From positions 394,571-458,570 of the forward strand of contig JADJAG010000005.1 in the NCBI GenBank assembly GCA_016704325.1: 64,000 bases of DNA, read 5' to 3'. Below, one piece after another: positions 5,714 to 60,149 of the stretch (position 1 is the stretch's first letter; each line of letters begins with the position of its first letter). This DNA comes from Chitinophagaceae bacterium (GTDB lineage: Bacteria; Bacteroidota; Bacteroidia; Chitinophagales; UBA10324). Under the pieces are notes generated by a model that did no database searches, was not told the origin of the DNA, and was given only the letters and a program-made list of their open reading frames with translations. Made by a program: the position numbers and the translations under genes.

Positions 5714-7261
5714 TTATACATCAATACTTGCACCCCTGCTTTCAAACGTAATTACATTTGCATGTATCCTTCCTTCCTCTGATCCATTTTCTAAGCGCAA
5801 CACCCCGCGCGGACAAACAGCCGCGCAAATACCGCAACCCACACAGGAAGATCGTACGATGTTTTCGCCTCGTTGCGCATAAGCTCTCACATCAATTCCC
5901 ATCTCACAATAAGTAGAGCAGTTTCCGCAAGAAATGCATTGTCCGCCATTCGTAGTGATCCGGAAACGAGATTTGAAACGTTGCATCATGCCAAGATAGG
6001 CAGCCAACGGGCAACCGAACCGGCACCAAACCCTGTTTCCCATAAATGGATAGAAGCCGGTACCTACCACACCAGAGAATACAGAACCAATCATGAAGCC
6101 ATACACTTGATGTAATTGGTTGGTTGCATTTCCCAACAACCTGTTTTCTGAAAAGTAATTTGCCAGGGTAATGCCTGTCATCACTACTGCAAACACGAGG
6201 ACGCTGTGTATCATCCACCGCTCCACCTTCCATGATCTTAAGGATTTATCAGATAGTTGGCGGAAAGGATCTCCTAAAGTTTCTGCAAGCCCACCGCAAC
6301 CGCAAACCCAGGAACAATACCACCGCTTGCCAAAAAAATAGGAAAGGACTGGCACCGCAATAATGATCAGCACAATGCCCCAGATCAGCATGAACCATCC
6401 GATGGTTCCGGATTGAATCATCTGATTGAGGTTGTAATCGTAGAAGAAAGTGTAATTAAGTGGCCAGATATTTTTAAAATCGTACCAGGGTTTATTTAAT
6501 GAAACCAAAATCTCAGGAATGATAAAGGCCAGTGCAGTTTGAAAAAACATCACCGACCCTGTACGAATTTGCTGATAGGTATTGTGGCGGTATTTCAATA
6601 ACATTCGAATACCCATTACCACCACTGCAACGGTATAAAGAAACCCATACAGAAACCATTGACTGGCGCCATTTCCACTCAAAGTATTGCTCACCGGATC
6701 AACAAGAATCACCCAGTTGGTTATATAGTATGGAAACCAATAGAGTACAATATAGAACAGGATCAGCACAGTGCCTATTAGTATTCCAACCCAGCCTCGT
6801 GCATTAAGTTTGTCAAAGAAAATATGGTTATTCTTAATTCCTTTTATTCCGCTTCCATACTTTGGAATAATGTAGAGTAAACTTCCTGATAAGGTGAAAA
6901 GCACAATCATTAAAAGCAGCCATTTGTTGTTTTCCACCAGCCAGCCTGTTGTCGCATTTTTAGTGATGGCGAATGTATAATCAGTATAGATTACTTTGTC
7001 CCAATCGCTTGCTGCACGGTTTTTTTTGTTGATTTCATTGATGCGTTTTTTAAAATCGCTGACGAAAGCGAAATTGGAAGAATAACTTTTGTTCAGCATT
7101 CCAGCAACAGCAGGTTCAATCTGTTCCAGGTGGGTGGAATCAGTAATGGTGTGGTGAAGGATTTTCGCGGTGAGCACATAAGTACTTCCAAAATAGCTGC
7201 CAATAAACAGAAACAATCCTGCCATCACAATTGCAATTCCTGTCTTCATTTGATAGCTCAT
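5714..7261 (-). CDS. Polytopic membrane polyferredoxin (NapH/MauN/CcoG-like 4Fe-4S binding protein)
   Basis: 515 aa with multiple hydrophobic helices. Cys motifs WYCSWVCGCGG and VWCRFGCP. Two ferredoxin clusters: CISCGNCSTYC and CVGCGICAAVCP. Confidence 0.75.
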   Translation of the reverse strand: MSYQMKTGIAIVMAGLFLFIGSYFGSTYVLTAKILHHTITDSTHLEQIEPAVAGMLNKSYSSNFAFVSDFKKRINEINKKNRAASDWDKVIYTDYTFAITKNATTGWLVENNKWLLLMIVLFTLSGSLLYIIPKYGSGIKGIKNNHIFFDKLNARGWVGILIGTVLILFYIVLYWFPYYITNWVILVDPVSNTLSGNGASQWFLYGFLYTVAVVVMGIRMLLKYRHNTYQQIRTGSVMFFQTALAFIIPEILVSLNKPWYDFKNIWPLNYTFFYDYNLNQMIQSGTIGWFMLIWGIVLIIIAVPVLSYFFGKRWYCSWVCGCGGLAETLGDPFRQLSDKSLRSWKVERWMIHSVLVFAVVMTGITLANYFSENRLLGNATNQLHQVYGFMIGSVFSGVVGTGFYPFMGNRVWCRFGCPLAAYLGMMQRFKSRFRITTNGGQCISCGNCSTYCEMGIDVRAYAQRGENIVRSSCVGCGICAAVCPRGVLRLENGSEEGRIHANVITFESRGASIDV

Positions 7262-7264
7262 AGA

Positions 7265-8614
7265 CTAAAACTTGGATTTCATTATCCTGATTTTTTTTTG
7301 CCACAATCCTCTTTTTGATTTTAGGCTGAGGTTGGCACCTGAATTTTCCCGATTGAATTTTTGAATGATCTGAGATTCATATTGCCGGTAGTATTCAGGA
7401 TCGAAGTTGGCTTCCGGCAAATGTTCAAGTACGAATTCAATGCTTCTTCCCTCATGAATCCATTTGTCACAAGATTCGTGACGCAAACGAATGCCAAAAA
7501 CATTTATGCCGTTAACTGCACGCGACTGTTTATTGAAATGAATGCGCAGACTGATTTTTTCCACCGGATGTTGCCAATAGAAAGCCTGTTCACCTTCTTT
7601 CAGATTTGGAAACACCCAGCCATAGGTCTGATATTCAATATCAAAAAATTTGGCTGCATTGAACCAGATGCCCGGATTGTAAACACTACGTTTATTACAA
7701 ATTGTTTTGGCAATCGTTTCACCCATCATCCTGCCAGTATACCAAACCTGTTCCACCGGTTTCCGGTTGGGCAATGGTGTTCTGAATTCCGCACAGTCAC
7801 CAATAGCGAAGATGCCGGTTACATTTGTTTCGAGGTATTCATTTACAAGTACACCACGATTGCATTCTATGCCACTGTCTTTCAAAAAATCTATAACCGG
7901 TGAAACACCCACGGTTAGGCCGACGAACTGGCATTCCACAATATCACCTTTATCGGTAGTTATTGATTTAACCTTACCATTTGTATCAGGGCAAATTTCA
8001 ACAAGATTGGTTTCAGTACGCAGATCAATGTGATGGTCGCGAATATGACTGCCAATCATCATGGCCTCTTCTTTGGGCAATACACCATCCCAGAAATTTT
8101 TCTCTCGTATAAGAAATGTTACTTTAATATTTCGTGATGCAAGCATCTCCGCCATTTCAACGCCAATTAATCCTCCGCCAACGATCACCGCATGTTTAGC
8201 ATCCGAGGTGAGTTGCTGCATGTTTTCCAGGTCTTGTTTGGAATAGAGTCCTTGCACGCCTATTATGTCCTGCCCCGGCCATCCGAATTTGTTAGGCTTT
8301 GAACCGCTGGCTATTATTAGTAGATCAAACGAGACAGTTCCCCCGGACGTTAAGAGCAATGTTTGCTGTGCTTTACTAATGGATTTTACTTCATCAAATA
8401 AAAGTTCAATACGGTTCTTTTTCCAAAACCAGTCTTCATAAGGTTTCGTGTGTTCAAATTTCATGTGCCCCATGTACACATACATGAGCGCCGTGCGTGA
8501 AAAAAAGTATTCACTTTCTTTTGAGATTACAGTGATACGGAAATCGCTTTGCTTACGGATATGCCTCGCAGCCGTAATACCTGAAATTCCATTTCCAATA
8601 ATTACAATATGCAT
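7265..8614 (-). CDS. NAD(P)/FAD-dependent pyridine-nucleotide-disulfide-type oxidoreductase
   Basis: I prefer ATG 8614 as start (MHIVIIGNGISGITAA is a Rossmann GxGxxG motif). Second dinucleotide motif AVIVGGGLIGVEMAE; GIFAIGDCAE flavin motif. The stop lies 3 nt before the polyferredoxin start. Confidence 0.75.
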   Translation of the reverse strand: MHIVIIGNGISGITAARHIRKQSDFRITVISKESEYFFSRTALMYVYMGHMKFEHTKPYEDWFWKKNRIELLFDEVKSISKAQQTLLLTSGGTVSFDLLIIASGSKPNKFGWPGQDIIGVQGLYSKQDLENMQQLTSDAKHAVIVGGGLIGVEMAEMLASRNIKVTFLIREKNFWDGVLPKEEAMMIGSHIRDHHIDLRTETNLVEICPDTNGKVKSITTDKGDIVECQFVGLTVGVSPVIDFLKDSGIECNRGVLVNEYLETNVTGIFAIGDCAEFRTPLPNRKPVEQVWYTGRMMGETIAKTICNKRSVYNPGIWFNAAKFFDIEYQTYGWVFPNLKEGEQAFYWQHPVEKISLRIHFNKQSRAVNGINVFGIRLRHESCDKWIHEGRSIEFVLEHLPEANFDPEYYRQYESQIIQKFNRENSGANLSLKSKRGLWQKKIRIMKSKF

Positions 8615-10312: not shown

Positions 10313-12259
10313 TCAATTGTTTCTAGCCTTTTCCAATTCCGCGCCGAGATTTTCCCATCGGCTCATTTCTTCTGCGAGTTGTAGTTTATGCTTATCGTAG
10401 TGCGCATATATTTCTTTTGATTCTGTAGCATTGAGTAATTCCGGTTTAGAAAGCTTCAGTTCCACATGCGTGATGCTTGATTCCAGCTCAGAAATTTTTT
10501 TCTCTGATTCGGCTAACTGGCGTTCCAGCTTTTTCAGCTCTTTTTGCTTTTGCTTATCAACCGGCACATTGTTAGTTTTTGGTTTTTCGGTATTGCCATT
10601 TTTCCTTGCATCCGGCAATAATCCCCTCGATAACTCCAACTCCCGGAATGAAGCAGTTTTTTGTGATTCCAGGAATTCATAGACACCACCTATATATTCT
10701 TTGATGCTGTGATTACGGAAATAAAAAATCTTGTTAACCAGACCATCGAGAAAATCACGGTCATGCGACACCACAATCAGTGTTCCTGAATAGTTATTCA
10801 ATGCTTCCTTCAACACTTCTTTCGAACGCATGTCGAGGTGATTGGTTGGCTCATCCAATACAAGGCAGTTTACAGGTTCTAACAATAATTTTGCAAGGGC
10901 AAGCCGCGATTTTTCTCCACCTGAAAGCACTTTTACTTTTTTGTCCACATCATCACCACGAAATAGAAAGGCACCCAACAGACTGCGCACGCGTGCACTC
11001 ATTTCAGATGGCGCAATTTTGTCGATGGTATTGAAAACTGTTTCATCACCGTTTAAGCGGTCGGCCTGGTGCTGTGCATAGAAACCGATTTTTACATTAT
11101 AACCCGGATTTATATCACCTTCTGCAGGTTCTTCTCCCACCATAATTTTTGCCATGGTGGTTTTGCCTTCCCCATTTTTTCCAACGAAGGCAATACGGTC
11201 GCCCCGGTTCACATGAAAGGTGATGTCTTCTAAGATCACCTTTTGACCATAACGTTTTGTAACATGCTTTGCTTCAAAAACCAATTGTCCGGAACGGGGG
11301 CCTTCCGGAAAGCGAAAACGAATGGCGGAGTTATCTTCATCGTCTACTTCAATACGTTCTGTTCGGTCAAGCTGCTTTATCAGCGATTGCGCAAATTTGG
11401 CTTTCGACGCTTTATAGCGGAATTTTTCGATCAGAATTTCTGTCTGCCTGATTCCTTTGTCCTGGTTTTTTTTCTGTGCCAGCAAATGATCTCTTCGCTC
11501 CTTGCGCAATTCCACAAACTTTGAATAGGAGGCAGGGTAATCATCTATATTCCGGTTAATGATTTCAATGGTCCGGTTGGTAACGCGGTCGAGGAAAGCA
11601 CGATCATGGGAAACCAGTAACACGGCCCCTTCATAGTCTTGTAAAAACTCTTCCAGCCAGATGATGGCTTCAATGTCAAGATGATTCGTGGGCTCATCCA
11701 AAAGCAAGAGGTCGGGCTTGCGCAACAGCAATTTTGCCAATTCAATCCGCATTTGCCAGCCTCCGCTGAATTCAGCCACGCTTCTTGAAAAATCGGTACG
11801 TGCAAAACCCAGACCAACAAGAATGCGTTCCATCTGTTCTTCAAGCTTCCCGATGCCGAGTATTTCCAACCGGTGTCCTACATCATGCCACTCTGTTAGC
11901 AGGTCCATATAATCGGGAGCTTCATGGCTGGTATGATGGCTGACGCGATCGGTAAGGTCATTATACCGCTTCTCTAAAGCTTTAATTTCCTTAAATGCTG
12001 TTTCTGTTTCCTGCAGTACTGTTTTATTACCATGAAATGACAATTCCTGTGACAGGTAGCCACGTGTAAATTCTTTCGGGAAGGAAATGTTACCGGTATC
12101 AGGGTTACTATTTCCGGAAAGGATTTTCATCAAAGTAGACTTACCTGCTCCGTTTCTGCCGACCAAGCCGATGCGGTCTTTATCGTTAATAAAGAAAGAA
12201 ACTTCTTCGAAAAGTGCATCGCCTCCGTGGAAAACGGAGATGTTATTTATTGAAATCAT
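10313..12259 (-). CDS. ABC-F family ATPase (two ATP-binding cassettes, no membrane domain)
   Basis: The track start at 12268 is TTG; ATG 12259 gives MISINNISV. Walker A motifs GRNGAGKST and GKNGEGKTT. Signatures LSGGWQMR and LSGGEKSR. Charged coiled-coil C-terminus. Confidence 0.9.
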   Translation of the reverse strand: MISINNISVFHGGDALFEEVSFFINDKDRIGLVGRNGAGKSTLMKILSGNSNPDTGNISFPKEFTRGYLSQELSFHGNKTVLQETETAFKEIKALEKRYNDLTDRVSHHTSHEAPDYMDLLTEWHDVGHRLEILGIGKLEEQMERILVGLGFARTDFSRSVAEFSGGWQMRIELAKLLLRKPDLLLLDEPTNHLDIEAIIWLEEFLQDYEGAVLLVSHDRAFLDRVTNRTIEIINRNIDDYPASYSKFVELRKERRDHLLAQKKNQDKGIRQTEILIEKFRYKASKAKFAQSLIKQLDRTERIEVDDEDNSAIRFRFPEGPRSGQLVFEAKHVTKRYGQKVILEDITFHVNRGDRIAFVGKNGEGKTTMAKIMVGEEPAEGDINPGYNVKIGFYAQHQADRLNGDETVFNTIDKIAPSEMSARVRSLLGAFLFRGDDVDKKVKVLSGGEKSRLALAKLLLEPVNCLVLDEPTNHLDMRSKEVLKEALNNYSGTLIVVSHDRDFLDGLVNKIFYFRNHSIKEYIGGVYEFLESQKTASFRELELSRGLLPDARKNGNTEKPKTNNVPVDKQKQKELKKLERQLAESEKKISELESSITHVELKLSKPELLNATESKEIYAHYDKHKLQLAEEMSRWENLGAELEKARNN

Positions 12260-12485
12260 AGGGCGCAAAGGTAAATGGGAAAGTTGATTAATGTTTTTTT
12301 TGAATGCACTTTCTGTTTACGACGGAGAAAGTGGTTAAACTTGTTACGCTAACAACAGATATCATTTGTAGCCATTTGTAATCACTTGCTGTTTAACTCA
12401 CAACAGATGATGACAGATTTTTGGAACGGTTTTAGCCTGTCGTGGAAATATATTTATTTCTAAACCATAAATCCAACAAACCATT

Positions 12486-23733: not shown

Positions 23734-24159
23734 TTAGATACTGCCCGAAGTCATACCCCATTTAGCAAGTATCAGCGCTGCAATCAGCACGCCTATCAAA
23801 TGATAACCGATATCTACGAACCAGATGCCGAGTGGTTTCTTTGTATAGTTTAATGCAGTGCCTACCAGACCAACTACCAATCCGGCAATCATTACATAAC
23901 TTCTCATGAAACAATCTGACAGTTCTCTGCAACGAATCGAGTTCAGGAGAAGTCCAGTACAGGTAACAATCAGAAAAGTAAGTAGGAAACCAATAATCAT
24001 ATAGCGGGCCATGCCACTATTGTCATTCATATCCATTTTGTGGTTACGCGCCCAGTATTTACCGAAAAGCACCGTGTACCAAACGGTACCCACTGCGAAA
24101 TAAGCCACTGTAGCGGCCAGTACCATTGGCCAGTTCAAATGTAGTATTGCGTTCTTCAT
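23734..24159 (-). CDS. DUF1761-like small membrane protein
   Basis: I prefer ATG 24159 (MKNAILHLNWPMVLAATVAYFAVGTVWYTVLFGKYW). Four hydrophobic helices. Confidence 0.6.
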   Translation of the reverse strand: MKNAILHLNWPMVLAATVAYFAVGTVWYTVLFGKYWARNHKMDMNDNSGMARYMIIGFLLTFLIVTCTGLLLNSIRCRELSDCFMRSYVMIAGLVVGLVGTALNYTKKPLGIWFVDIGYHLIGVLIAALILAKWGMTSGSI

Positions 24160-24220
24160 GCTTTTTTTTGATGAAAGTAGCAAAACTTCTGAAAATGAAA
24201 AGAAACTAATTGGAAGCAAA

Positions 24221-24349
24221 TAGTCGGAAGTAATTAGTCGGAAGTCGGAGTAGTTAGTCGGAAGTCGGAAGTAGTTAGTCGGAAGTAAGTTTTAAGTTGT
24301 GAGTAGTGAGAAGAGAGTAGTGAGAAGAGAGTAGTGAGTAGTGAGTAAC
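24221..24349 (+). repeat. C-poor short tandem repeats of 7-nt period (left arm)
   Basis: (agtcgga agtcgga gtagtt) repeated, then gagtagt gagaaga gagtagt gagaaga gagtagt gagtagt. No C at all in 24289-24348. Confidence 0.85.
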
Positions 24350-24510
24350 GGGTGACATGGGTCAGTTAGGGGGCAGGTAAGAATTTGCTTAATATTAGTT
24401 GACACTAGTACAACAACCGATCCGCTGTGTTAAGCAAAATCAATTGGACCAATCGGTCAATCGACTAATTAGCATATTAATATTATTAAAGATCACCAAA
24501 TCCATCCTTT

Positions 24511-24614
24511 ATACATCGGCACATTAATCCAACAACCCAACAACCCATCAACCCATCGGCACATCAGCACATCACCCCATCGGCACATCAACTCATCAAC
24601 CAATCGGCACATCT
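24511..24614 (+). repeat. G-poor short tandem repeat of 8-nt period (right arm)
   Basis: ATC recurs exactly every 8 nt nine times from 24547 to 24613: catcaacc catcggca catcagca catcaccc catcggca catcaact catcaacc aatcggca catc. Confidence 0.85.
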
Positions 24615-24662
24615 CCCTCAAAAAATCCCCTCCATAACTCAACCATTTCCTACATTTGTAAT

Positions 24663-25844
24663 ATGCCACAAACAACTACTCCTGTCTCTTTCGAGAATAC
24701 GGAAATAGCTTTTTCCTACAAAAGCAATGGGGAGCTGAAGAAATCAGTCCTGATGTTTTCGTTGATGAATCAAAACTGGTTGGTTAAGATCGGATCGCGG
24801 CTGACGCCGGTTGCCTTTCAATGGAGACTTCCGATTCATGGATTGGTAAAGGCCACCATCTATGAACAGTTTTGTGGTGGGGAGACTTTGGCAGAATGCG
24901 AGCCGGTAACACAAAAGCTTGCCAAGTATAATGTGTCCACCATACTCGATTATGGCGTGGAAGCCAAAGAAACCAATGAAGAGTTTGACAAAGGCATCAG
25001 TGAATTCTTAAGAGCGATTGCATTTTCAAAAGAGAATCATCACATACCATTTATCAGTATTAAAGTAACGGGCATAGCCGCCTTTGCTTTATTGGAAAAA
25101 CTGCATGCAAAGCAAGCGCTTACAGATGCGGAAATCCTGGATTGGAATCTCGTGAAAGGTCGACTGCATAAAGTATGTAAGGCTGCGCATGATGCCGGCA
25201 CAGGCGTGATGCTTGACGCAGAAGAAACATGGATTCAGGATCCGGTGGATGAACTGGCCATGGAAATGATGAAGCATTACAATAAGGAAAAAGCAGTAGT
25301 GTATAATACCCTGCAGATGTACCGCACCGACCGGTTAGACTTTCTGAAAAAATCACTTGAACAAGCTAAGAGTGGAGGATTTGTATTGGCGCTGAAGCTG
25401 GTTCGTGGCGCTTATATGGAAAGGGAACGACGAAGGGCAGTGGAGTTGAAATATAAGTCACCCATTCAACCAGATAAAGCCGCATCTGACCGCGATTTCG
25501 ATGCTGCCGTCATGTACTGTATAGAAAATATCGATCGTATCAGTTGTTGTGTCGCTTCTCATAACGAGAAGAGTTCGTTGCTTGCAGCTGAGCAGGCTGC
25601 AAAAAAGGGCATTCCTGCTTCTAATCCGCACCTGCATTTCTCACAGCTCTATGGGATGAGCGACAATATCACCTTTAACCTGGCCAATGCCGGCTATAAT
25701 GTAACCAAATATGTACCTTATGGACCGGTGAAGGATGTGGTACCCTATCTCATGCGAAGGGCAAAGGAAAATACCTCGGTAAAAGGCCAAAGCAGCAGAG
25801 AATTGTTGCTTTTGAAGAAGGAAATCAACAGACGAAAGATTTGA
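24663..25844 (+). CDS. Proline dehydrogenase (monofunctional PutA-like)
   Basis: 393 aa. Blocks LDYGVE, DAEETWIQD, LVRGAYMERER, VASHNE, QLYGMSD, YVPYGPVKDVVPYLMRRAKEN. Confidence 0.85.
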   Translation: MPQTTTPVSFENTEIAFSYKSNGELKKSVLMFSLMNQNWLVKIGSRLTPVAFQWRLPIHGLVKATIYEQFCGGETLAECEPVTQKLAKYNVSTILDYGVEAKETNEEFDKGISEFLRAIAFSKENHHIPFISIKVTGIAAFALLEKLHAKQALTDAEILDWNLVKGRLHKVCKAAHDAGTGVMLDAEETWIQDPVDELAMEMMKHYNKEKAVVYNTLQMYRTDRLDFLKKSLEQAKSGGFVLALKLVRGAYMERERRRAVELKYKSPIQPDKAASDRDFDAAVMYCIENIDRISCCVASHNEKSSLLAAEQAAKKGIPASNPHLHFSQLYGMSDNITFNLANAGYNVTKYVPYGPVKDVVPYLMRRAKENTSVKGQSSRELLLLKKEINRRKI

Positions 25845-25865
25845 GCAGCTTGTAAAAAATAGAAG

Positions 25866-26395
<530 letters not shown>

Positions 26396-26452
26396 CTCGA
26401 AAACTTTTTTTCAACCTAACTTCGCACATTCAATTTCCATTTCATCCACTAT

Positions 26453-28939: not shown

Positions 28940-29160
28940 AGCCATTGTCTTTCAGTAGGGTGTATGACAAATTGCATTTCTCAGCGATAAAATAATACAA
29001 GCGCGAAGACGCCCCAAAAACGTAGCATATTGATCCTTTGTGATTTTCTTCGCGACTTGGCGTCTTGGCGTTAAAAAAGCAAGGCGCTAAGGCAAACGCT
29101 ACAGCATTAAGTGCAATTTGTCATAAACCCTTTCAGTAAGCAAACTGCAGGACAATGGCT
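28940..29160. repeat. MITE-like nested palindrome
   Basis: Outer arms agccattgtc (28940-28949) and gacaatggct (29151-29160). Inner arms tatgacaaattgca (28963-28976) and tgcaatttgtcata (29112-29125). Internal module gcgcgaagacgcc ... cttcgcgacttggcgtcttggcg. No ORF. Confidence 0.7.
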
Positions 29161-32324: not shown

Positions 32325-32394
32325 CAATTCAATCATTCACTCCATCGGCACATCAGCACATCAATTCATCAGCACATCAACCCATCTCACCCCC
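32325..32394 (+). repeat. G-poor short tandem repeat of 8-nt period abutting a start codon
   Basis: caattcaa tcattcac tccatcgg cacatcag cacatcaa ttcatcag cacatcaa cccatctc accccc, then ATG at 32395. It shares the word catcggcacatcagcacatca with 24556-24580. Confidence 0.85.
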
Positions 32395-33390: not shown

Positions 33391-33495
33391 GTTGAAAATG
33401 TAAACAGTCGAATGCAATTGCCGTGAAGCGTAAAAAATGATCTTACTCATTCTCGTTTACAGTTCCGATGGCAATAGCTATGGTAGTCAAATTCT

Positions 33496-33572
33496 CCGGC
33501 TTCGCCGCAACCATTCAACCATTCAACCATTCAACCATTCAACCATTCAACCATTCAACCATTCAACCATTC
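33496..33572 (+). repeat. GC hinge word plus (CCATTCAA) x7 perfect tandem repeat
   Basis: ccggcttcgccgca (33496-33509), then seven perfect ccattcaa units (33511-33566) and a degenerate ccatc. Between convergent genes. Confidence 0.9.
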
Positions 33573-33593
33573 AACCATCTAGCAATTTTTCAT

Positions 33594-38239: not shown

Positions 38240-38448
38240 GGGTGTACGGCAAATTGGAAATAGATTATTGGGTGTTGAAATTGAGTATTGAGTATTAAGT
38301 ATTGAGTATTGAGTATTGAGTAAGTTGAGTAAGTGAGTAGAGTAGGGATTGCAGAATAGCAAGTGATCGGCTTCGCCGCAGCAATTTAACCATTTAGCAA
38401 TTTAACCACTCAACCATTCACCCCCCCCAACCATTGCTTGATAAGATG
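38240..38448 (+). repeat. Bipartite 7-nt/8-nt periodic intergenic element, copy X
   Basis: Terminus gggtgtacggc, then the 30-bp core caaattggaaatagattattgggtgttgaa (38250-38279). (ttgagta) x6 with no C in 38251-38351, then hinge gatcggcttcgccgcag. Then gcaattta accattta gcaattta accactca accattca (1 G in 38382-38436). Ends attgcttgataagatg. Confidence 0.9.
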
Positions 38449-38461
38449 ATCCTCACACAAA

Positions 38462-39622
38462 TCAAATTTCAAGCTCGGCTATTTCCCGCCAATTTGTAAT
38501 CAACGTACCATCACTTCGCTGTTGTTGTTGCTCACCGCCATAAAGCAGAAAGGATGATTTTACATGACTTAATTTTTTCCAGTAATTGATGTTTTTCAGG
38601 AAATCAGGCTGGAATGTTTTACCTGATTTTATTTCAATAGGCATTAACTTTCCTGCGTTATCAGTAATTATATCTATTTCATGACCGGTTTTATCTCTCC
38701 AGTAAAACAGGTTAACCGGCATTCCGCTATTGGTTCTTTTTTTTAATAGTTCAGCTACCACCATTGTTTCGAACAAAGCTCCTTTCAGCGGATAGTTTTG
38801 AATCTGCTCCCAATGGTTGATTCCTAACAATGAACAAACTAAGCCAGTGTCATAGAAATATAGTTTGGGGCGCTTAACAATCGTTTTATTGAAATTTTTG
38901 TGATGAGGTTTCAAAAGAAAAATAATAAAACTGCTTTCCAGGATTCCAATCCACGACTGAACTGTTTTACCATCGGCACCCGCCTCATTCGCAAGCGCAC
39001 TCAGGTTTAATTCCTGACCAGTTCGACCTGCAAGCAGCCGGATAAATCTTTCAAAAATAATCAGATCACTCACATTTTTTATTTGACGCACATCCCTTTC
39101 AATGTATGTTCTGATGTAATCAGGCAGCCAAGCCGTTGGTGCTATTTCTTGATCATAAATAGGAGGGTAAAAACCTTTGAATAGTAGCTCCTCATCGGTT
39201 GACGGAACAAGTTTTGCTTTTTTGAGCTCATTTATTGAAAAAGGTAATAGTTGAATGTATCCAATCCTGCCGGCCAGTGTTTGGGAAATGGTTTGCTGAA
39301 GTAAGAAATTGTTGGAACCGGTGAGCACAAAAAGACCTTTTTCTTTACTTCCATCTAAAATTTCCTGCAGGTAAGAGAAGAGTTCAGGTGTTCGCTGCAC
39401 TTCATCCAAGATTGCTCCATAAGGCATACTTTTTAAAAATCCCCGTGGATCCTCTATTGCAAAGTTCCTGGTATCCGGATTCTCTAATGAGTAATAGCTT
39501 TTATCGGGAAAAGTCTTTTTTACAAGCGTCGTTTTGCCCGATTGCCTCGGCCCGATAATCGCAATTGCTTTAAAAGTCTTCGCAAGATGTTCCAGCCTTT
39601 TTTGTGCATCTCTTTTAAGCAT
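38462..39622 (-). CDS. AAA-type ATPase with DUF4143-like C-terminal domain
   Basis: 386 aa. Walker A GPRQSGKTT and Walker B-like LDEVQ. The architecture matches the AAA_14 + DUF4143 family common in Bacteroidota and archaea. Confidence 0.75.
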   Translation of the reverse strand: MLKRDAQKRLEHLAKTFKAIAIIGPRQSGKTTLVKKTFPDKSYYSLENPDTRNFAIEDPRGFLKSMPYGAILDEVQRTPELFSYLQEILDGSKEKGLFVLTGSNNFLLQQTISQTLAGRIGYIQLLPFSINELKKAKLVPSTDEELLFKGFYPPIYDQEIAPTAWLPDYIRTYIERDVRQIKNVSDLIIFERFIRLLAGRTGQELNLSALANEAGADGKTVQSWIGILESSFIIFLLKPHHKNFNKTIVKRPKLYFYDTGLVCSLLGINHWEQIQNYPLKGALFETMVVAELLKKRTNSGMPVNLFYWRDKTGHEIDIITDNAGKLMPIEIKSGKTFQPDFLKNINYWKKLSHVKSSFLLYGGEQQQQRSDGTLITNWREIAELEI

Positions 39623-40020
39623 GTTACAAAAATATGGAATAATTCGGAATCAAATTCCGTATTTATCCAGTTTGCCATAAATTCAAACTGGAAAAATCTC
39701 AAAGGAGGATGCTTCGGGCATATTTTTTATGTTCGGCAGATTACTTACTTATTCTTTAATTTTGCAAACACTTTCAAAACCTGCATCAAATCCTTCATTT
39801 TTCTTCAAAATCATTGCATTTTCCCCAAAAAGAATCTTATCTTTGCCGTTCTTTAAAAATGGAGGCGTTTACCATTGGTTATCAATCACTTCCCTCTTCA
39901 CCATTGTTTATCATTGCCATTCAATTATTTACGCCTGCTTATTTAAGGTGTAAGAAGCAATTTGCTTCGTCTCCTTGGATCGAATACCAGTAACTGCTAA
40001 CGAACAACATAAATTAACAT

Positions 40021-44734: not shown

Positions 44735-44840
44735 TTAGTATTTTACCTAATCAGTTTGAGGTACATGTGTTGATGAAAGCCTGTAGAGTACGACAAACCT
44801 TTTTGCTTGCATGGCATTGGTTGGCTTTACGCAAGCCATC

Positions 44841-44929
44841 GGGTGTAAATTGAATATTGAATATTGAGTGTTGAGTATTCAATATTGAAAAATCTAATAT
44901 TCAACACCCAATAATCAATATCCAATTTG
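44841..44929. repeat. 7-nt periodic array plus inverted copy of the 30-bp core (copy Z)
   Basis: gggtgtaa attgaat attgaat attgagt gttgagt attcaat attgaaa, then ttcaacacccaataatcaatatccaatttg (44900-44929). The latter is the reverse complement of the core at 38250-38279 with 2 mismatches. It forms a 12-bp stem: gtgttgagtatt / aatattcaacac. Confidence 0.8.
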
Positions 44930-44986
44930 TTGTACAACCAAAGTCATTGTTACCTTCCTGTTTTCCAAAACGGATTCATTTAGCCT

Positions 44987-56025: not shown

Positions 56026-58299
56026 ATGAGAAAGATCAAATTCAAAACTGAATATGTGCCGCTGAGCGACGAAGTCATCAACAGCCATAAAAATTTCGAT
56101 CAGTTGTTGTCTGCCTATGTTGCTGCGCCTAAACCCAATTGGTTTAAACAATTCATACAAAAAAAGTGGACTATGTTTGGAGGAGGATTAATGACCGGTG
56201 CAATTATTACTTCATTATTGTGGTATAACCAGGAAACGCTGTTTGAAAATGATACGCTGGTACAGGAATCGCAGCCGGCTGCAGAACAACAGTTAATAAA
56301 GGAGCAACAGCCGAAAGCCATTATTGATTCTTTGCAATTTGCTATTGCAGATGAAATCGAACAGGAACATCCTGCAAACATTGATGCTGCCGAAGAAAAA
56401 AATACAGCTTCAACAGCATCTTTGACACCTGATACTAAAGGGAAGGATGTTTTAGCAAATGGTAATGCAGTCGGTTTACAAAATGGCACCGTAAAAGGTT
56501 CAACCGAAAAAGTTCAGCAGCATATTATTGATGAGCCCCTTACTCCGGTAGTCACAAGAGCGCAACAACCAATAGAGTCTGCTGAAAGTACAATGACAGA
56601 TGTTATTCCTGCAGGTACATCCATACCGCTAAATGATCAATCGGCAATAGTCGCTGATAATCTCGTGCAAACTGATACCACTACAGTGGAATTGGAAAAG
56701 CAGGTTGCTGTTGAGCACAATGCGCTTTCTTCCGGTAATATTGACACCGGTAGGGTATTGGAACCAGTAGTAGCAGCTGTTGTACCGGAAGCAAAGACTG
56801 AATTATCCGCCACTGATTCTGCAATAATTGTTAGTGAATCAAAAGATAAGGATGGCAACCTCTTGCCAGGTGTTGTAGCCGGCGCAGCGATTATTGCAGC
56901 ACCTTCTTTAGGTGATAAATCAAATGCAGATAAGAATACTAAATCCAATAATAGCGACAAACAAAAGTCAAAGGGAAAAGAGAAGCAGGAATCCAATGCT
57001 CCAGAAGACATCACGGCTTTCAATGCAGACAGTACAGTCAATGATGCCTCAGTGGAAAAGAAGAAAGGATGGTTTGTTTTTGGAACAGATTCTTCAAAAG
57101 TTGATAAAACAGCCGGTGGAAGTAAAATGGATTCCATGCGGGCAGCCGGCAAAACGCCGGAGCAACTAAGCCAGGATTCACTTTATACACCACGCTACGC
57201 GCAGGTTTCTTTCATAACTCCTTTGAGTAGTAATGGAATAGATGGCTATAAGTATATGCATTATTTCTCACTCAATATTTTACAGGGTTATAATGGCGCA
57301 TTGGAAGGAGCAGAATTTGGTGGATTGTTGAATGGGGTTAAAGGCTATGTAACGGGAGCACAATTTGGCGGACTTGCGAATTTTGCGGGGGGCAATCTTA
57401 AGGGAGCACAATTCGGAGGATTAGCAAATTTCACCGGCGGATATGTTAAAGGTGCACAGTTTGGCGGATTGGCTAATGTAGGCGAATCAGTAGATGGGGC
57501 TCAGTTTGCAGGTATCGCAAATGTAAGCGGCAGTTATGTTACCGGGTTTCAGGCAGCGGGCATAACCAATATTTCTGCCGACAGCCTGAATGGAGCACAA
57601 GTGGCCGGCATTGTCAATATAGTAAGTAGTGAAAAGCAATCAACCGGATGGCAGGTTGCCGGAGTCGGCAATGTTTCCCTCGCAGAAGCAAAAGGCGGGC
57701 AAATCGGCGGTGTGTTTAATGTGGCCAACAGGTTAGTAGGAGCACAAATCAGCTTAATCAATTTCGGACAAAATGTAGACGGTGTACAGATTGGTTTAAT
57801 TAATATTTCCGATACAATAAAGGGTGCAGCCATCGGATTAGTGAGTGTAAGTTCTGATGGAGTATTTGATGTAGCCCTTTGGACCAGCGACTTTCTGATG
57901 TTTAATGGCGGTATTCGCGTGGGTACGAAATCCGTTTATAATATTTATGCTTATGGTGTGTCGCCTTTCCAAACTGAACTTCCTTTTGGTTTTGGTATTG
58001 GTATTGGTGGACATATTCCTGTTAAGAAGAAAGCATTTATTGAGATTGATGGTATGGCATGGTCAATGCATCGCAGCTATGTGAGTTTCGATGAGATCAA
58101 CATGATTAACCAGTTGCGTGTAATGGGTGGATACCGCTTCAATAAATATTTCAGTGTTTTTGCAGGTCCAACATTAAACGTCAGTGTACAGAGTAACCGT
58201 TACGAACCGTTTCTCGACAATTACTTTTATGAGAGTGTAAGTGAAAACAACACCGTTCGCCTGGCACCTGGATTTGTAGCGGGAGTGCGTTTATTCTGA
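56026..58299 (+). CDS. Single-pass membrane protein: short cytoplasmic N-terminus, disordered linker, ~16-aa G-x-Q-x-G-G-x-x-N repeats, OMP-like beta-barrel C-terminus
   Basis: 757 aa, 9 nt after the sigma gene. One helix WTMFGGGLMTGAIITSLLWY, then ~300 aa of Q/E/A/T/K-rich sequence. About 11 repeats (GAQFGGLANFAGGNLK, GAQFGGLANFTGGYVK, ...GVQIGLINISDTIK). The last ~150 aa have alternating-hydrophobic strands ending GVRLF. Confidence 0.6.
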   Translation: MRKIKFKTEYVPLSDEVINSHKNFDQLLSAYVAAPKPNWFKQFIQKKWTMFGGGLMTGAIITSLLWYNQETLFENDTLVQESQPAAEQQLIKEQQPKAIIDSLQFAIADEIEQEHPANIDAAEEKNTASTASLTPDTKGKDVLANGNAVGLQNGTVKGSTEKVQQHIIDEPLTPVVTRAQQPIESAESTMTDVIPAGTSIPLNDQSAIVADNLVQTDTTTVELEKQVAVEHNALSSGNIDTGRVLEPVVAAVVPEAKTELSATDSAIIVSESKDKDGNLLPGVVAGAAIIAAPSLGDKSNADKNTKSNNSDKQKSKGKEKQESNAPEDITAFNADSTVNDASVEKKKGWFVFGTDSSKVDKTAGGSKMDSMRAAGKTPEQLSQDSLYTPRYAQVSFITPLSSNGIDGYKYMHYFSLNILQGYNGALEGAEFGGLLNGVKGYVTGAQFGGLANFAGGNLKGAQFGGLANFTGGYVKGAQFGGLANVGESVDGAQFAGIANVSGSYVTGFQAAGITNISADSLNGAQVAGIVNIVSSEKQSTGWQVAGVGNVSLAEAKGGQIGGVFNVANRLVGAQISLINFGQNVDGVQIGLINISDTIKGAAIGLVSVSSDGVFDVALWTSDFLMFNGGIRVGTKSVYNIYAYGVSPFQTELPFGFGIGIGGHIPVKKKAFIEIDGMAWSMHRSYVSFDEINMINQLRVMGGYRFNKYFSVFAGPTLNVSVQSNRYEPFLDNYFYESVSENNTVRLAPGFVAGVRLF

Positions 58300-58563: not shown

Positions 58564-58705
58564 GGGTGTACGACAAATCTATATTGGTATTAATGATAAC
58601 ATTCTCGAAGAATTTTATTTAGCGCGAAGACGCCAAGTCGCTAAGAAGAGGCGGAGGATCATCAGTGATTTTGTTTTTTGTCGACTTGGCATCTTTGTGG
58701 TGGGA
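58564..58705. repeat. Second copy of the MITE-like module seen at 28940-29160
   Basis: gggtgtacgacaaatct (compare gggtgtatgacaaattgca at 28957). gcgcgaagacgccaagtcgctaag ... gatcatcagtgatttt ... tcgacttggcatctttgtg (compare 29001-29073). Confidence 0.65.
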
Positions 58706-58800
58706 TTGCTTCTTTGTTTCACCATGCAACGCCGCTTTAATTAACCGTCATTGCGAGTACGTACCATTGTACTGCTGGAAAAAAATCAATATTGAACACA

Positions 58801-58966
58801 CAATTTGGATATAGATTATTGGGTGTTGAAATTGAGTATTAAGTATTTGAGTAACTGAGTAAAGCAAAGTAGTGATTACAGGATAGCAAGTGATCGGCTT
58901 CGTCACAGCAAATTAGCCATTTAGCCATTTAACCATTTAGCCCACCAACCATTGCTTGACAAGATG
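58801..58966 (+). repeat. Bipartite 7-nt/8-nt periodic intergenic element, copy Y
   Basis: Core caatttggatatagattattgggtgttgaa, then ttgagta ttaagta tttgagt aactgag. Hinge gatcggcttcgtcacag, then gcaaatta gccattta gccattta accattta gcccacca. Ends attgcttgacaagatg. Collinear with copy X. Confidence 0.9.
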
Positions 58967-59051
58967 AACGAATTGTCGTAAACTCCAAAAAAAATGATAC
59001 CCCAATACTGCAACCGAAACGTTTATATTTGCGCCTCAAAAAAAGCAGATC

Positions 59052-60149
59052 ATGGGTTTACAGTGTGGCATAGTAGGATTACCAAACGTAGGGAAGTCAA
59101 CCCTTTTTAATGCGCTTTCGAATGCAAAAGCACAGGCAGCGAATTTCCCTTTTTGTACGATAGAACCTAATATTGGTGTGATTACGGTACCTGACCAGCG
59201 ACTGACTGAATTGGCTAAACTGGTAAATCCCAATAGAATTGTTCCAACCACCGTAGAGATCGTTGACATAGCTGGTCTGGTGAAAGGCGCCAGCAAAGGC
59301 GAAGGGCTTGGCAATCAATTTTTAGGAAATATCAGGAGTACCGATGCTATTATTCATGTGGTACGCTGTTTCGACGACGATAATGTGATACATGTAGATG
59401 GCTCGGTAAACCCGGTGCGCGACAAAGAAATAATTGATACGGAGTTGCAATTGAAAGACCTGGAAACGGTGGAAAAGCGGATTGCAAAGCAAGAAAAGGT
59501 AACAAAGACAGGTGACCGCGATGCAAAGCGTATCATGGATTCGTTACATGCCTACAAGTCTCATCTCGAATCAGGTAAGTCGGCACGGAGTGTGGCATTG
59601 AGCGAGGAAGACAAAGCAGCAGTAGCTGATATGTTTTTACTCACCGCTAAACCTGTACTTTATGTGTGCAATGTGGATGAAGCATCCGTGGTAACAGGTA
59701 ATAAGTATACAAAGCAATTGATGGATGCAGTGAAAGATGAAACTGCTGAGTTGCTTTTTATTTCTGCAGCTATTGAAGCCGAGATTGCATTACTTGAAAG
59801 TTATGATGACCGAATAGCATTTCTCAACGACCTGGGATTAAAGGAATCAGGCGTGCAAAAACTCATACATGGTTCGTACCACTTGCTGAACCTATTCACC
59901 TATTTTACTGCCGGTGTGCAGGAAGTAAGGGCATGGACCATTAAGAGTGGTATGGTGGCACCGCAAGCAGCCGGTGTAATCCATTCCGATTTTGAAAAAG
60001 GATTTATCAGGGCAGAAGTAATTGCTTATAACGATTTCATTAAGTACGGAAGCGAAGCGAAATGCCGGGAAGTAGGCCGGTTGCGGGTTGAAGGAAAGGA
60101 ATATGTGGTTGCAGACGGAGATGTGATGCATTTCTTATTCAATGTATAA
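59052..60149 (+). CDS. ychF: Redox-regulated ribosome-binding ATPase YchF
   Basis: 365 aa. GIVGLPNVGKSTLFNAL, DIAGLVKGAS, VVRCF, and the C-terminal TGS-like block AGVIHSDFEKGFIRAEV. Confidence 0.95.
   Translation: MGLQCGIVGLPNVGKSTLFNALSNAKAQAANFPFCTIEPNIGVITVPDQRLTELAKLVNPNRIVPTTVEIVDIAGLVKGASKGEGLGNQFLGNIRSTDAIIHVVRCFDDDNVIHVDGSVNPVRDKEIIDTELQLKDLETVEKRIAKQEKVTKTGDRDAKRIMDSLHAYKSHLESGKSARSVALSEEDKAAVADMFLLTAKPVLYVCNVDEASVVTGNKYTKQLMDAVKDETAELLFISAAIEAEIALLESYDDRIAFLNDLGLKESGVQKLIHGSYHLLNLFTYFTAGVQEVRAWTIKSGMVAPQAAGVIHSDFEKGFIRAEVIAYNDFIKYGSEAKCREVGRLRVEGKEYVVADGDVMHFLFNV

Follow-up and report, generated by a model that had tools for sequence, protein, structure and literature searches.

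Cyanobacterial STRRs are intergenic tandem heptamers that occur at many loci per genome and whose function is unknown; to our knowledge, no paired polarity has been recognized for them. The long simple sequence repeats (LSSRs) of prokaryotes, described by Mrazek et al. (2007) and summarised in PMC4679880, have units of 5–11 nt among which heptanucleotides predominate, show a sporadic phylogenetic spread, and are put down to polymerase slippage. Intergenic direct repeats of TAACTGA are found in Beggiatoaceae, Cyanobacteria, and a few Bacteroidetes, often in forward orientation just upstream of start codons (PMC4679880). In H. influenzae, 7-bp repeats lie upstream of hmw1A and hmw2A, and their unit number has a demonstrated graded effect on the expression of the surface adhesins (PMC8262952, PMC12721329). 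Our literature search yielded no description in Bacteroidota or Chitinophagaceae of arrays like those reported below; general work on LSSRs and the TAACTGA paper were all that it returned.

Here, we analysed a compound repeat upstream of a proline dehydrogenase (PRODH) gene in 64 kb of DNA from a Chitinophagales bacterium (the window; the term covers the whole stretch). PRODH of the nearest GTDB representative is just 69% identical to that of this source, and exact look-ups of this PRODH protein and of protein P0122 found no record of either.

Results

Architecture of the PRODH element

The genes for the DUF1761-family protein and PRODH are divergent and enclose a gap of 503 nt (24160–24662), the start codon of the former being the ATG at 24159–24157. 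The synteny of the DUF1761 gene is kept in all close relatives. The gap contains two C-poor arrays based on 7-nt units, a unique spacer of 150 nt, and a G-poor array phased at 8 nt (Table 1). An earlier note on this DNA had described such a bipartite layout, with a C-poor arm, a unique spacer, and a G-poor arm; the layout is real, and it is general in the order.

Table 1 Coordinates of the features at the DUF1761–PRODH locus and of the related array
Feature	Position	Strand	Basis or remark
DUF1761-family gene, 141 aa	23734..24159	-	Pfam PF08570, E 3e-20; left neighbour, reads away from the element
Conserved DUF1761-proximal block, A-rich leader	24160..24211	-	98% identical to L085
Left array a: AGTCGGA / AGTAGTT heptamers, 21-nt super-repeat, C-poor on the plus strand	24212..24290	.	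TRF
Left array b: GAGTAGT / GAGAAGA heptamers, 14-nt unit, no C	24295..24347	.	TRF
Unique spacer, ordinary composition, length constant among alleles, sequence unconserved	24349..24498	.	Five alleles
Right array: CATC-phased octamers CATCGGCA / CATCAGCA / CATCAACC / CATCACCC, 24-nt higher-order repeat	24499..24618	.	TRF, period 8 and period 24
Conserved PRODH-proximal block with predicted sigma-A -7 box TACATTTG	24619..24662	+	97.7% identical to L085
PRODH gene, 393 aa	24663..25844	+	Pfam PF01619, E 4e-77
Sister CATC-octamer array abutting the ATG of the Asparaginase_2 gene	32343..32386	.	21-nt word in common with the right array

TRF reported left array a at 24222–24286 (period 21, 3.1 copies, 93% matches) and left array b at 24301–24347 (period 14/7, 93%), and thereby recovered the 21-nt super-repeats of agtcgga and the gagtagt/gagaaga units of the earlier note; the scores of the three arrays were 116, 80, and 111. 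Its counts were reproduced as well: C is absent from 24289–24348, ATC starts nine times at a spacing of exactly 8 nt (24547, 24555 ... 24611, the last ending at 24613), and 24511–24662 holds 10 G in 152 nt. On the plus strand, the 120 nt of the right array contain 9 G and 49 C (7.5% G, 41% C), and the fillers of the octamers are drawn from a small set (GGCA, AGCA, AACC, ACCC). The 8-nt-phased tract had been said to reach the PRODH ATG. The G-poor composition does extend to 24657, but the periodicity ends at about 24618.

Autocorrelation gave a lag-7 identity of 0.66 in the left arm (z 8.7) and a lag-8 identity of 0.67 in the right arm (z 7.7), with z values of 7.7–8.9 across the arrays. In the window, 9 instances of the pattern CATCN4CATCN4CATC stand against an expectation of 0.03, all of them in the PRODH array or at the 32343 locus. 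These two sites also have the 21-nt word CATCGGCACATCAGCACATCA in common (at 24554 and 32343), as had been noticed for the leader of the glycosylasparaginase gene. Short units standing head to tail far beyond chance, the first mark of a VNTR or LSSR, are thus present.

Length alleles in close relatives

Orthologous loci with full synteny were collected via a protein database and its contigs, and allele lengths were measured between unique anchors. By alignment, the same element is carried by L081, L085, L086, L087, and L092, whose PRODH proteins are 97–98% identical to that of the window. The earlier note had proposed a check for copy-number variation, and alleles differing in length by whole units are indeed present among these strains. 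At 107 nt, the right arm of the window is intermediate between those of L085 and L087 (171 nt) and those of L086 and L092 (75 nt), the differences being 32, 64, and 96 nt. Left array b has alleles of 51, 72, and 44 nt that differ by multiples of 7 (7, 21, and 28), and left array a is 59 nt long in the window vs. 39–40 nt in L085, L086, L087, and L092. The spacer is 143–144 nt in all five alleles, and the arms of the four metagenome alleles differ in whole units only; this is the whole-unit length polymorphism between close relatives, with constant flanks, that characterizes a VNTR. The alleles are from metagenome assemblies, and short-read assemblies of this kind may collapse repeats, which puts the absolute lengths at some risk. 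Independent assemblies of two samples each yielded the 171-nt allele (L085, L087) and the 75-nt allele (L086, L092). Source samples of the locus are JGI 3300056788, 3300056759, 3300056850, and 3300057002, and SRR14932609.

The right arm of L085 consists of repeats of a 24-nt unit made up of three variant octamers, CAGCACAT CAACCAAT CGGCACAT, in agreement with the period of 24 found by TRF in the window. Strict phasing with degenerate fillers had been considered incompatible with simple slippage. The fillers form this higher-order unit, however, and together with the stepwise allele differences of the right arm it points to in-register slippage or unequal exchange as their source.

Other arrays of the window likewise vary by whole units in the same relatives. 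The 32343 array is six units (48 nt) longer in L085, L086, and L087 and absent from L082 and L083, and the 21226/21335 pair shows differences of single 7- and 8-nt units. At 33508–33578, between the convergent Asparaginase_2 and Cys_Met_Meta_PP genes, CAACCATT is repeated perfectly nine times vs. twice in L085–L087, which suggests that this array expanded very recently.

In L088, L089, and L090 (PRODH 92% identical at the amino acid level), the intergenic region is 180 nt long and lacks the arrays, and both promoter-proximal blocks are retained. Relatives at 76–79% have unrelated heptamers at the same site (TTCATAG x6; GAGTTCC x4) or none. The middle of the array-less allele showed no detectable homology to the window spacer (z 1.5), so that insertion of the element and its origin in situ are indistinguishable.

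Sequence constraint and the predicted PRODH promoter

Identity between the window and L085 was 85.7% at 4-fold sites, 75.8% in the spacer, 82.5% in the right arm, and 98% in the promoter-proximal blocks. The spacer diverges faster than synonymous sites, no purifying selection is visible between the two proximal blocks, and conservation is limited to approximately 45–50 nt beside each start codon. As expected of a VNTR, identities below that of 4-fold sites and the existence of an array-less allele indicate that neither the array nor the DNA around it is under sequence constraint. The same two results speak against the earlier suggestion of selection on a phased CATCNNNN motif.

The DUF1761-proximal block is retained in the array-less allele L088 and in L082 and L083. 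A -7-like box on the minus strand (24188..24181), AAGTTTTG, matches TAnnTTTG at 7/8 positions, from which we tentatively infer a promoter role. On the PRODH side, TAnnTTTG, the sigma-A -7 box of Bacteroidetes, is matched by TACATTTG (24651–24658), which is separated from the ATG by 4 nt. All relatives examined (L081, L082, L083, L084, and L088), down to 76% protein identity, retain the block TTCCTACATTTG. Of 77 orthologous loci, 35 have a perfect TAnnTTTG 6–23 nt upstream of the PRODH start codon vs. about 2 expected, as estimated from base composition. In Flavobacterium psychrophilum, the TAnnTTTG box is located at -12 to -5, and leaderless mRNAs amount to 5.5% (PMC9723704). With the box at this distance, PRODH transcription would start on the A of the ATG (24663), and consensus and conservation together thus predict a leaderless mRNA. 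With the -7 box this close to the ATG (4 nt), the octamer array would occupy about -46 to -165 and is probably DNA upstream of the promoter, not leader; the PRODH leader envisaged by the earlier note is therefore unlikely. The right array ends approximately 33 nt upstream of the -7 box. No plus-strand match to TAnnTTTG was found in the spacer, which might nonetheless hold an additional distal promoter. A scan for sigma-70 promoters and intrinsic terminators gave nothing in the element, the sigma-70 consensus being unsuited to Bacteroidetes.

Further TAnnTTTG boxes, 4–20 nt before start codons, were seen in the window at 39634 (-), 12273 (-), and 59024; the genes concerned are 38462–39622 (TATTTTTG-N4-ATG), 10313–12268, and the gene at 59052. 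Several mRNAs of the source genome may be leaderless or nearly so.

Folding and search for copies

Complementarity of the two arms had appeared much less clear to the earlier note than that in copies X and Y (described below), and both folding and an arm-duplex test found it to be absent. The RNA fold of the whole element was no better than those of shuffles (z +0.64). The arm–arm duplex reached -31 kcal/mol vs. -60 ± 5.5 kcal/mol for shuffled arms and was weaker than all 200 composition-matched shuffles, and the inverted-partner test was negative for the PRODH element (z -0.6 to 2.3). The complementary arms of a hairpin or inverted repeat are therefore lacking, and the hairpin reading of the element was ruled out by the first two tests together with the folds of X and Y. 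The element corresponds to no structured RNA with an Rfam covariance model, as Rfam gave no match at the gathering score in the window and none at E ≤ 1 in 24100–24720. BLAST of the arms and the spacer against the 64-kb window and all fetched loci detected the orthologues and the 32343 array only, and neither a terminal inverted repeat nor a target duplication was seen at the PRODH element. Dispersed copies with defined ends, as in REP or MITE families, were not found (the source genome was searched over 64 kb), and the MITE reading was ruled out by the absence of further copies.

Other repeats in the window

The window has eight array sites: 4742, 21226/21335, 24212/24529, 32343, 33508, 38280/38380, 44849/44896, and 58830/58913. 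The sequence at 44830–44945 is a true hairpin (fold z -5.9); folding of two copies termed X (38255–38450) and Y (58800–58975) showed no real hairpin. X and Y are dispersed homologues over approximately 170–190 nt that differ by indels of 7- and 8-nt units; the right end of the 44830 hairpin carries an inverted copy of the 30 nt (CAAATTGGAAATAGATTATTGGGTGTTGAA) that form the left end of X and Y. A dispersed repeat family was noted at 38250–38450, 58800–58970, 44830–44945, and 33465–33590, its core CGGCTTCGCCGCA plus octamers recurring at 33497. A short repeat family, GCGAAGACGCCAAGTCGC / TTGGCGTCTTGGCG, has inverted copies in two intergenic regions (29030–29075 and 58615–58700).

Downstream of the PRODH stop codon (25845–26400) lies a tandem cluster of REP-like palindromic units of approximately 86 nt (CCCTTCGACTCCGCTCAG ... 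GCTGAGCGAAGCCGAAGCGCCGGAT), which is kept in relatives at 97–98% (L081 1566–1674; L085 11183–11680) and absent from the 92% relative L088, where the intergenic region is 212 nt. The gap between PRODH and ThyA also contains approximately 150 nt of near-homopolymer runs (25976–26130), including a G run of 69 nt (26045–26113) and runs of C and T. L085 and L086 have continuous sequence free of homopolymer runs at the orthologous position (...gggagcaaaaatttatgccc...), and the runs look like a sequencing or assembly artefact of the source of the window. In L082, a 76% relative, three tandem units of approximately 300 nt (7064–7999) lie between the genes for shikimate dehydrogenase and RmuC, where the window has 184 nt; octamers of the AATCGAAC type and a GCCCCGTAGGGGC hairpin are present in each unit. 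Within a 757-aa ORF (56026–58299), three tandem copies of a 48-nt (16-codon) unit (57343–57486) seem to be a coding repeat with no relation to the intergenic arrays.

Arrays across Chitinophagales and their polarity

Eighty PRODH loci across Chitinophagales (L001–L080, 1.4 Mb) were surveyed with crude ORF-based gene calls. The intergenic tandem arrays had a period of 7/14/21 or 8/16/24 in 134 of 168 cases, and roughly one in ten intergenic regions of the order is filled with such arrays. The earlier note had called for a comparison of 7- and 8-nt periodicity with shuffled sequence, and intergenic DNA proved to be enriched, both in the window (lag 8, z 8.6) and in the 80 loci, where the autocorrelation peaked at lags 7, 8, 14, and 21 (z 9–13). 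Arrays were found in every gene-orientation context, convergent regions being the richest (19% vs. 3–10% elsewhere). In the 80 loci, 36% of arrays are accompanied by a significant inverted partner within their intergenic region (e.g., L009, L066, and L070), as exemplified by TAAAGCC...TTTAGGC at three loci of L009. Across genera, no unit sequences were found in common, which makes a conserved sequence-specific binder unlikely. By counts from the array lists, intergenic regions flanking PRODH carried arrays in about 24 of 160 cases vs. about 11 of 175 for other same-strand regions, and '--' regions carried the fewest (5 of 163); the excess at PRODH flanks may merely reflect operon-internal gaps.

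The composition of the arrays depended on their position. Those in the left half of an intergenic region were C-poor in 34 cases and G-poor in 8, and those in the right half were G-poor in 31 and C-poor in 9 (Fisher p 2e-7; 1e-6 without the window); 26 loci were consistent with this polarity and 6 were not. Adjacent arrays of opposite skew followed the order C-poor then G-poor in 11 pairs and the reverse in 0. The polarity was present in all four gene contexts, in paired and unpaired arrays, and with stricter gene sets. It is its own reverse complement and hence a property of the element, not of the strand; in other words, G is scarce on the strand that reads toward the nearest gene. This rule is obeyed by the PRODH element, each arm being G-poor on the sense strand of the adjoining gene. 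We found no description of the rule in the literature.

The order-wide polarity rule is real, and none of the causes considered explains it. Background composition is too weak a cause (GC skew of -0.19 immediately before starts and near 0 downstream of stops). By reasoning, transcription-coupled cytosine deamination fits convergent contexts but has the wrong sign in divergent ones, and avoidance of gene-facing start codons or TTTG boxes fits start-proximal arrays but not stop-proximal ones. Neutral slippage alone does not predict the polarity, and the arrays are therefore subject to some selective filter or a directional mechanism.

Discussion

The PRODH element is probably a compound VNTR that was made by in-register slippage, is dispensable, and lies between two divergent core promoters. 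Its three arrays, the left ones with 7-nt units in 21-nt and 14-nt super-units and the right one with 8-nt units in a 24-nt super-unit, would have grown via in-register replication slippage or unequal exchange in the unconstrained DNA between these promoters. The functional parts would be the 45–50 nt or so beside each start codon, which on the PRODH side comprise the predicted sigma-A -7 box and would give a leaderless mRNA. The arrays and the spacer would be dispensable filler that at most alters the distance between the promoters, and the PRODH element would be one case of an order-wide habit of Chitinophagales of carrying intergenic 7-/8-nt arrays.

Against pure filler stands the presence of one octamer family upstream of two amino-acid-catabolic genes. 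It could be taken to mean that PRODH and the glycosylasparaginase gene are under the common control of a DNA-binding regulator that reads CATC at 8-bp intervals, and it would fit such a phased binding array that CATC is invariant within the array while positions 5–8 vary and that the phase is retained in the 97% orthologue L081. CATC is also better conserved between orthologues than the fillers (44/51 vs. 30/52 positions), but this is no proof of selection because any in-phase alignment of a repeat conserves the common core automatically. The site number ranges from about 10 to 22 between near-identical strains, the 92% relative has no array at PRODH, and the 76% relatives have none at either locus; conservation of motif and site number among orthologous promoters, as in iterons, is thus not seen (absence at 92% and 76–79%, 2.3-fold unit variation at 97–98%). 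The helical repeat of DNA is about 10.5 bp, and a spacing of 8 bp is out of phase with it. Finally, a metagenome scan for six phased CATC gave, among the matches listed, mostly homogeneous simple repeats, many of them (CATC)n; among these matches only a few CATCAGCA arrays (L118, L126) resemble that of the window, and they lend no support to "CATC plus free filler" as a conserved architecture. We consider a binding array very improbable. A transcribed leader is also quite unlikely, in which the G-poor, C-rich array would lie in a long PRODH 5' UTR as an unstructured ribosome landing pad or a Rho-loading (rut-like) attenuator. In composition the right arm is the C-rich, G-poor, unstructured stretch of at least approximately 80 nt that a rut site calls for, the sense strand is depleted of G upstream of genes in these genomes, and the sister array, which abuts the asparaginase ATG, must be transcribed if the asparaginase gene is co-transcribed with its upstream neighbour. 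The conserved -7 box, however, places the predicted promoter downstream of the array, the spacer offers no plus-strand TAnnTTTG, L088 dispenses with the array, and the array length varies 2.3-fold.

The hypervariable unit number could instead act as a phase-variable "volume control" that tunes transcription of PRODH and/or DUF1761. Such tuning has precedents in heptanucleotide repeats of promoters and 5' UTRs (PMC8262952, PMC12721329), and arrays abut or overlap the PRODH promoter region in several genera (L006, L009, and L028). Nevertheless, given the predicted transcription start, the repeat lies outside the core promoter spacer, the 5' UTR, and the ORF, and its distance from the -7 box would leave core-promoter spacing unchanged. 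The flanking genes are housekeeping or catabolic rather than surface or contingency genes, and convergent gaps, which contain no promoter, carry arrays no less readily; we regard this tuning as a rather poor prospect. Unlikely, too, is a decayed inverted repeat, once a terminator-like hairpin or MITE/REP-like mobile element, in which independent expansion of the two arms would have abolished their complementarity. The inverted partners found for over a third of the arrays, the polarity common to paired and unpaired arrays, the true hairpin at 44830–44945, and the 30-nt terminal word that this hairpin has in common with X and Y in both orientations are consistent with such an origin. For the PRODH element itself, the fold and the arm duplex, no better and even weaker than those of shuffles, argue against it, as do the lack of a second copy of arms or spacer beyond the orthologues and the 32343 array and of terminal inverted repeats or a target duplication; a search for homology between the array-less allele and the spacer detected none.

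A compound VNTR made by slippage thus remains our preferred reading of the PRODH element, which, taken alone, is an ordinary hypervariable repeat. Its main uses are to mark strains and to warn that assemblies break or become distorted in such regions. What merits follow-up is the order-wide polarity. It is conceivable, if doubtful, that paired arrays form a functional, order-wide class of intergenic elements in Chitinophagales, conserved in architecture (7/8-nt periodicity and reverse-complement-symmetric polarity) and not in sequence. If so, the elements could be direction-specific insulators, their unit number would provide heritable tuning, and the PRODH element would be the largest example in the window. 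In such insulators, the polarity might prevent start codons and TTTG-type boxes from being oriented toward genes, or define where Rho loads on read-through RNA. Selection for Rho loading or against spurious start codons and promoters is a candidate cause of the polarity. The arrays combine fast turnover of units with a strict composition rule that is independent of orientation. Bacteroidota are without Shine-Dalgarno sequences, and whether selection or directional mutation lies behind the polarity bears on how repeats are tolerated or used in this phylum.

Comparison with the described systems places the element as follows. Like cyanobacterial STRRs, it has intergenic tandem heptamers, but it comes from another phylum and has other unit sequences, and its source genome also uses octamers. 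REP/BIME and MITE sequences are intergenic and often palindromic, and X, Y, and 44830–44945 resemble them as dispersed copies with common ends; the PRODH element, in contrast, has no complementary arms, second copy, or recognisable ends. TAACTGA repeats are heptamer direct repeats as well, but a search for TAACTGA units with up to 2 mismatches gave 0 matches; the units of the window are lineage-specific, and the PRODH array lies upstream of the predicted promoter and not beside the start codon. With the hmw1A/hmw2A repeats, the element has in common a 7-nt simple sequence repeat upstream of a gene and a unit number that varies among strains, whereas the genes of the PRODH locus are metabolic and the arrays appear to be dispensable. 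As the class is summarised in PMC4679880, the PRODH element belongs to the known long simple sequence repeats of prokaryotes: like them, the window arrays are intergenic tandem repeats of 7–8-nt units, and they differ in forming a C-poor/G-poor pair around a spacer with an order-wide polarity.
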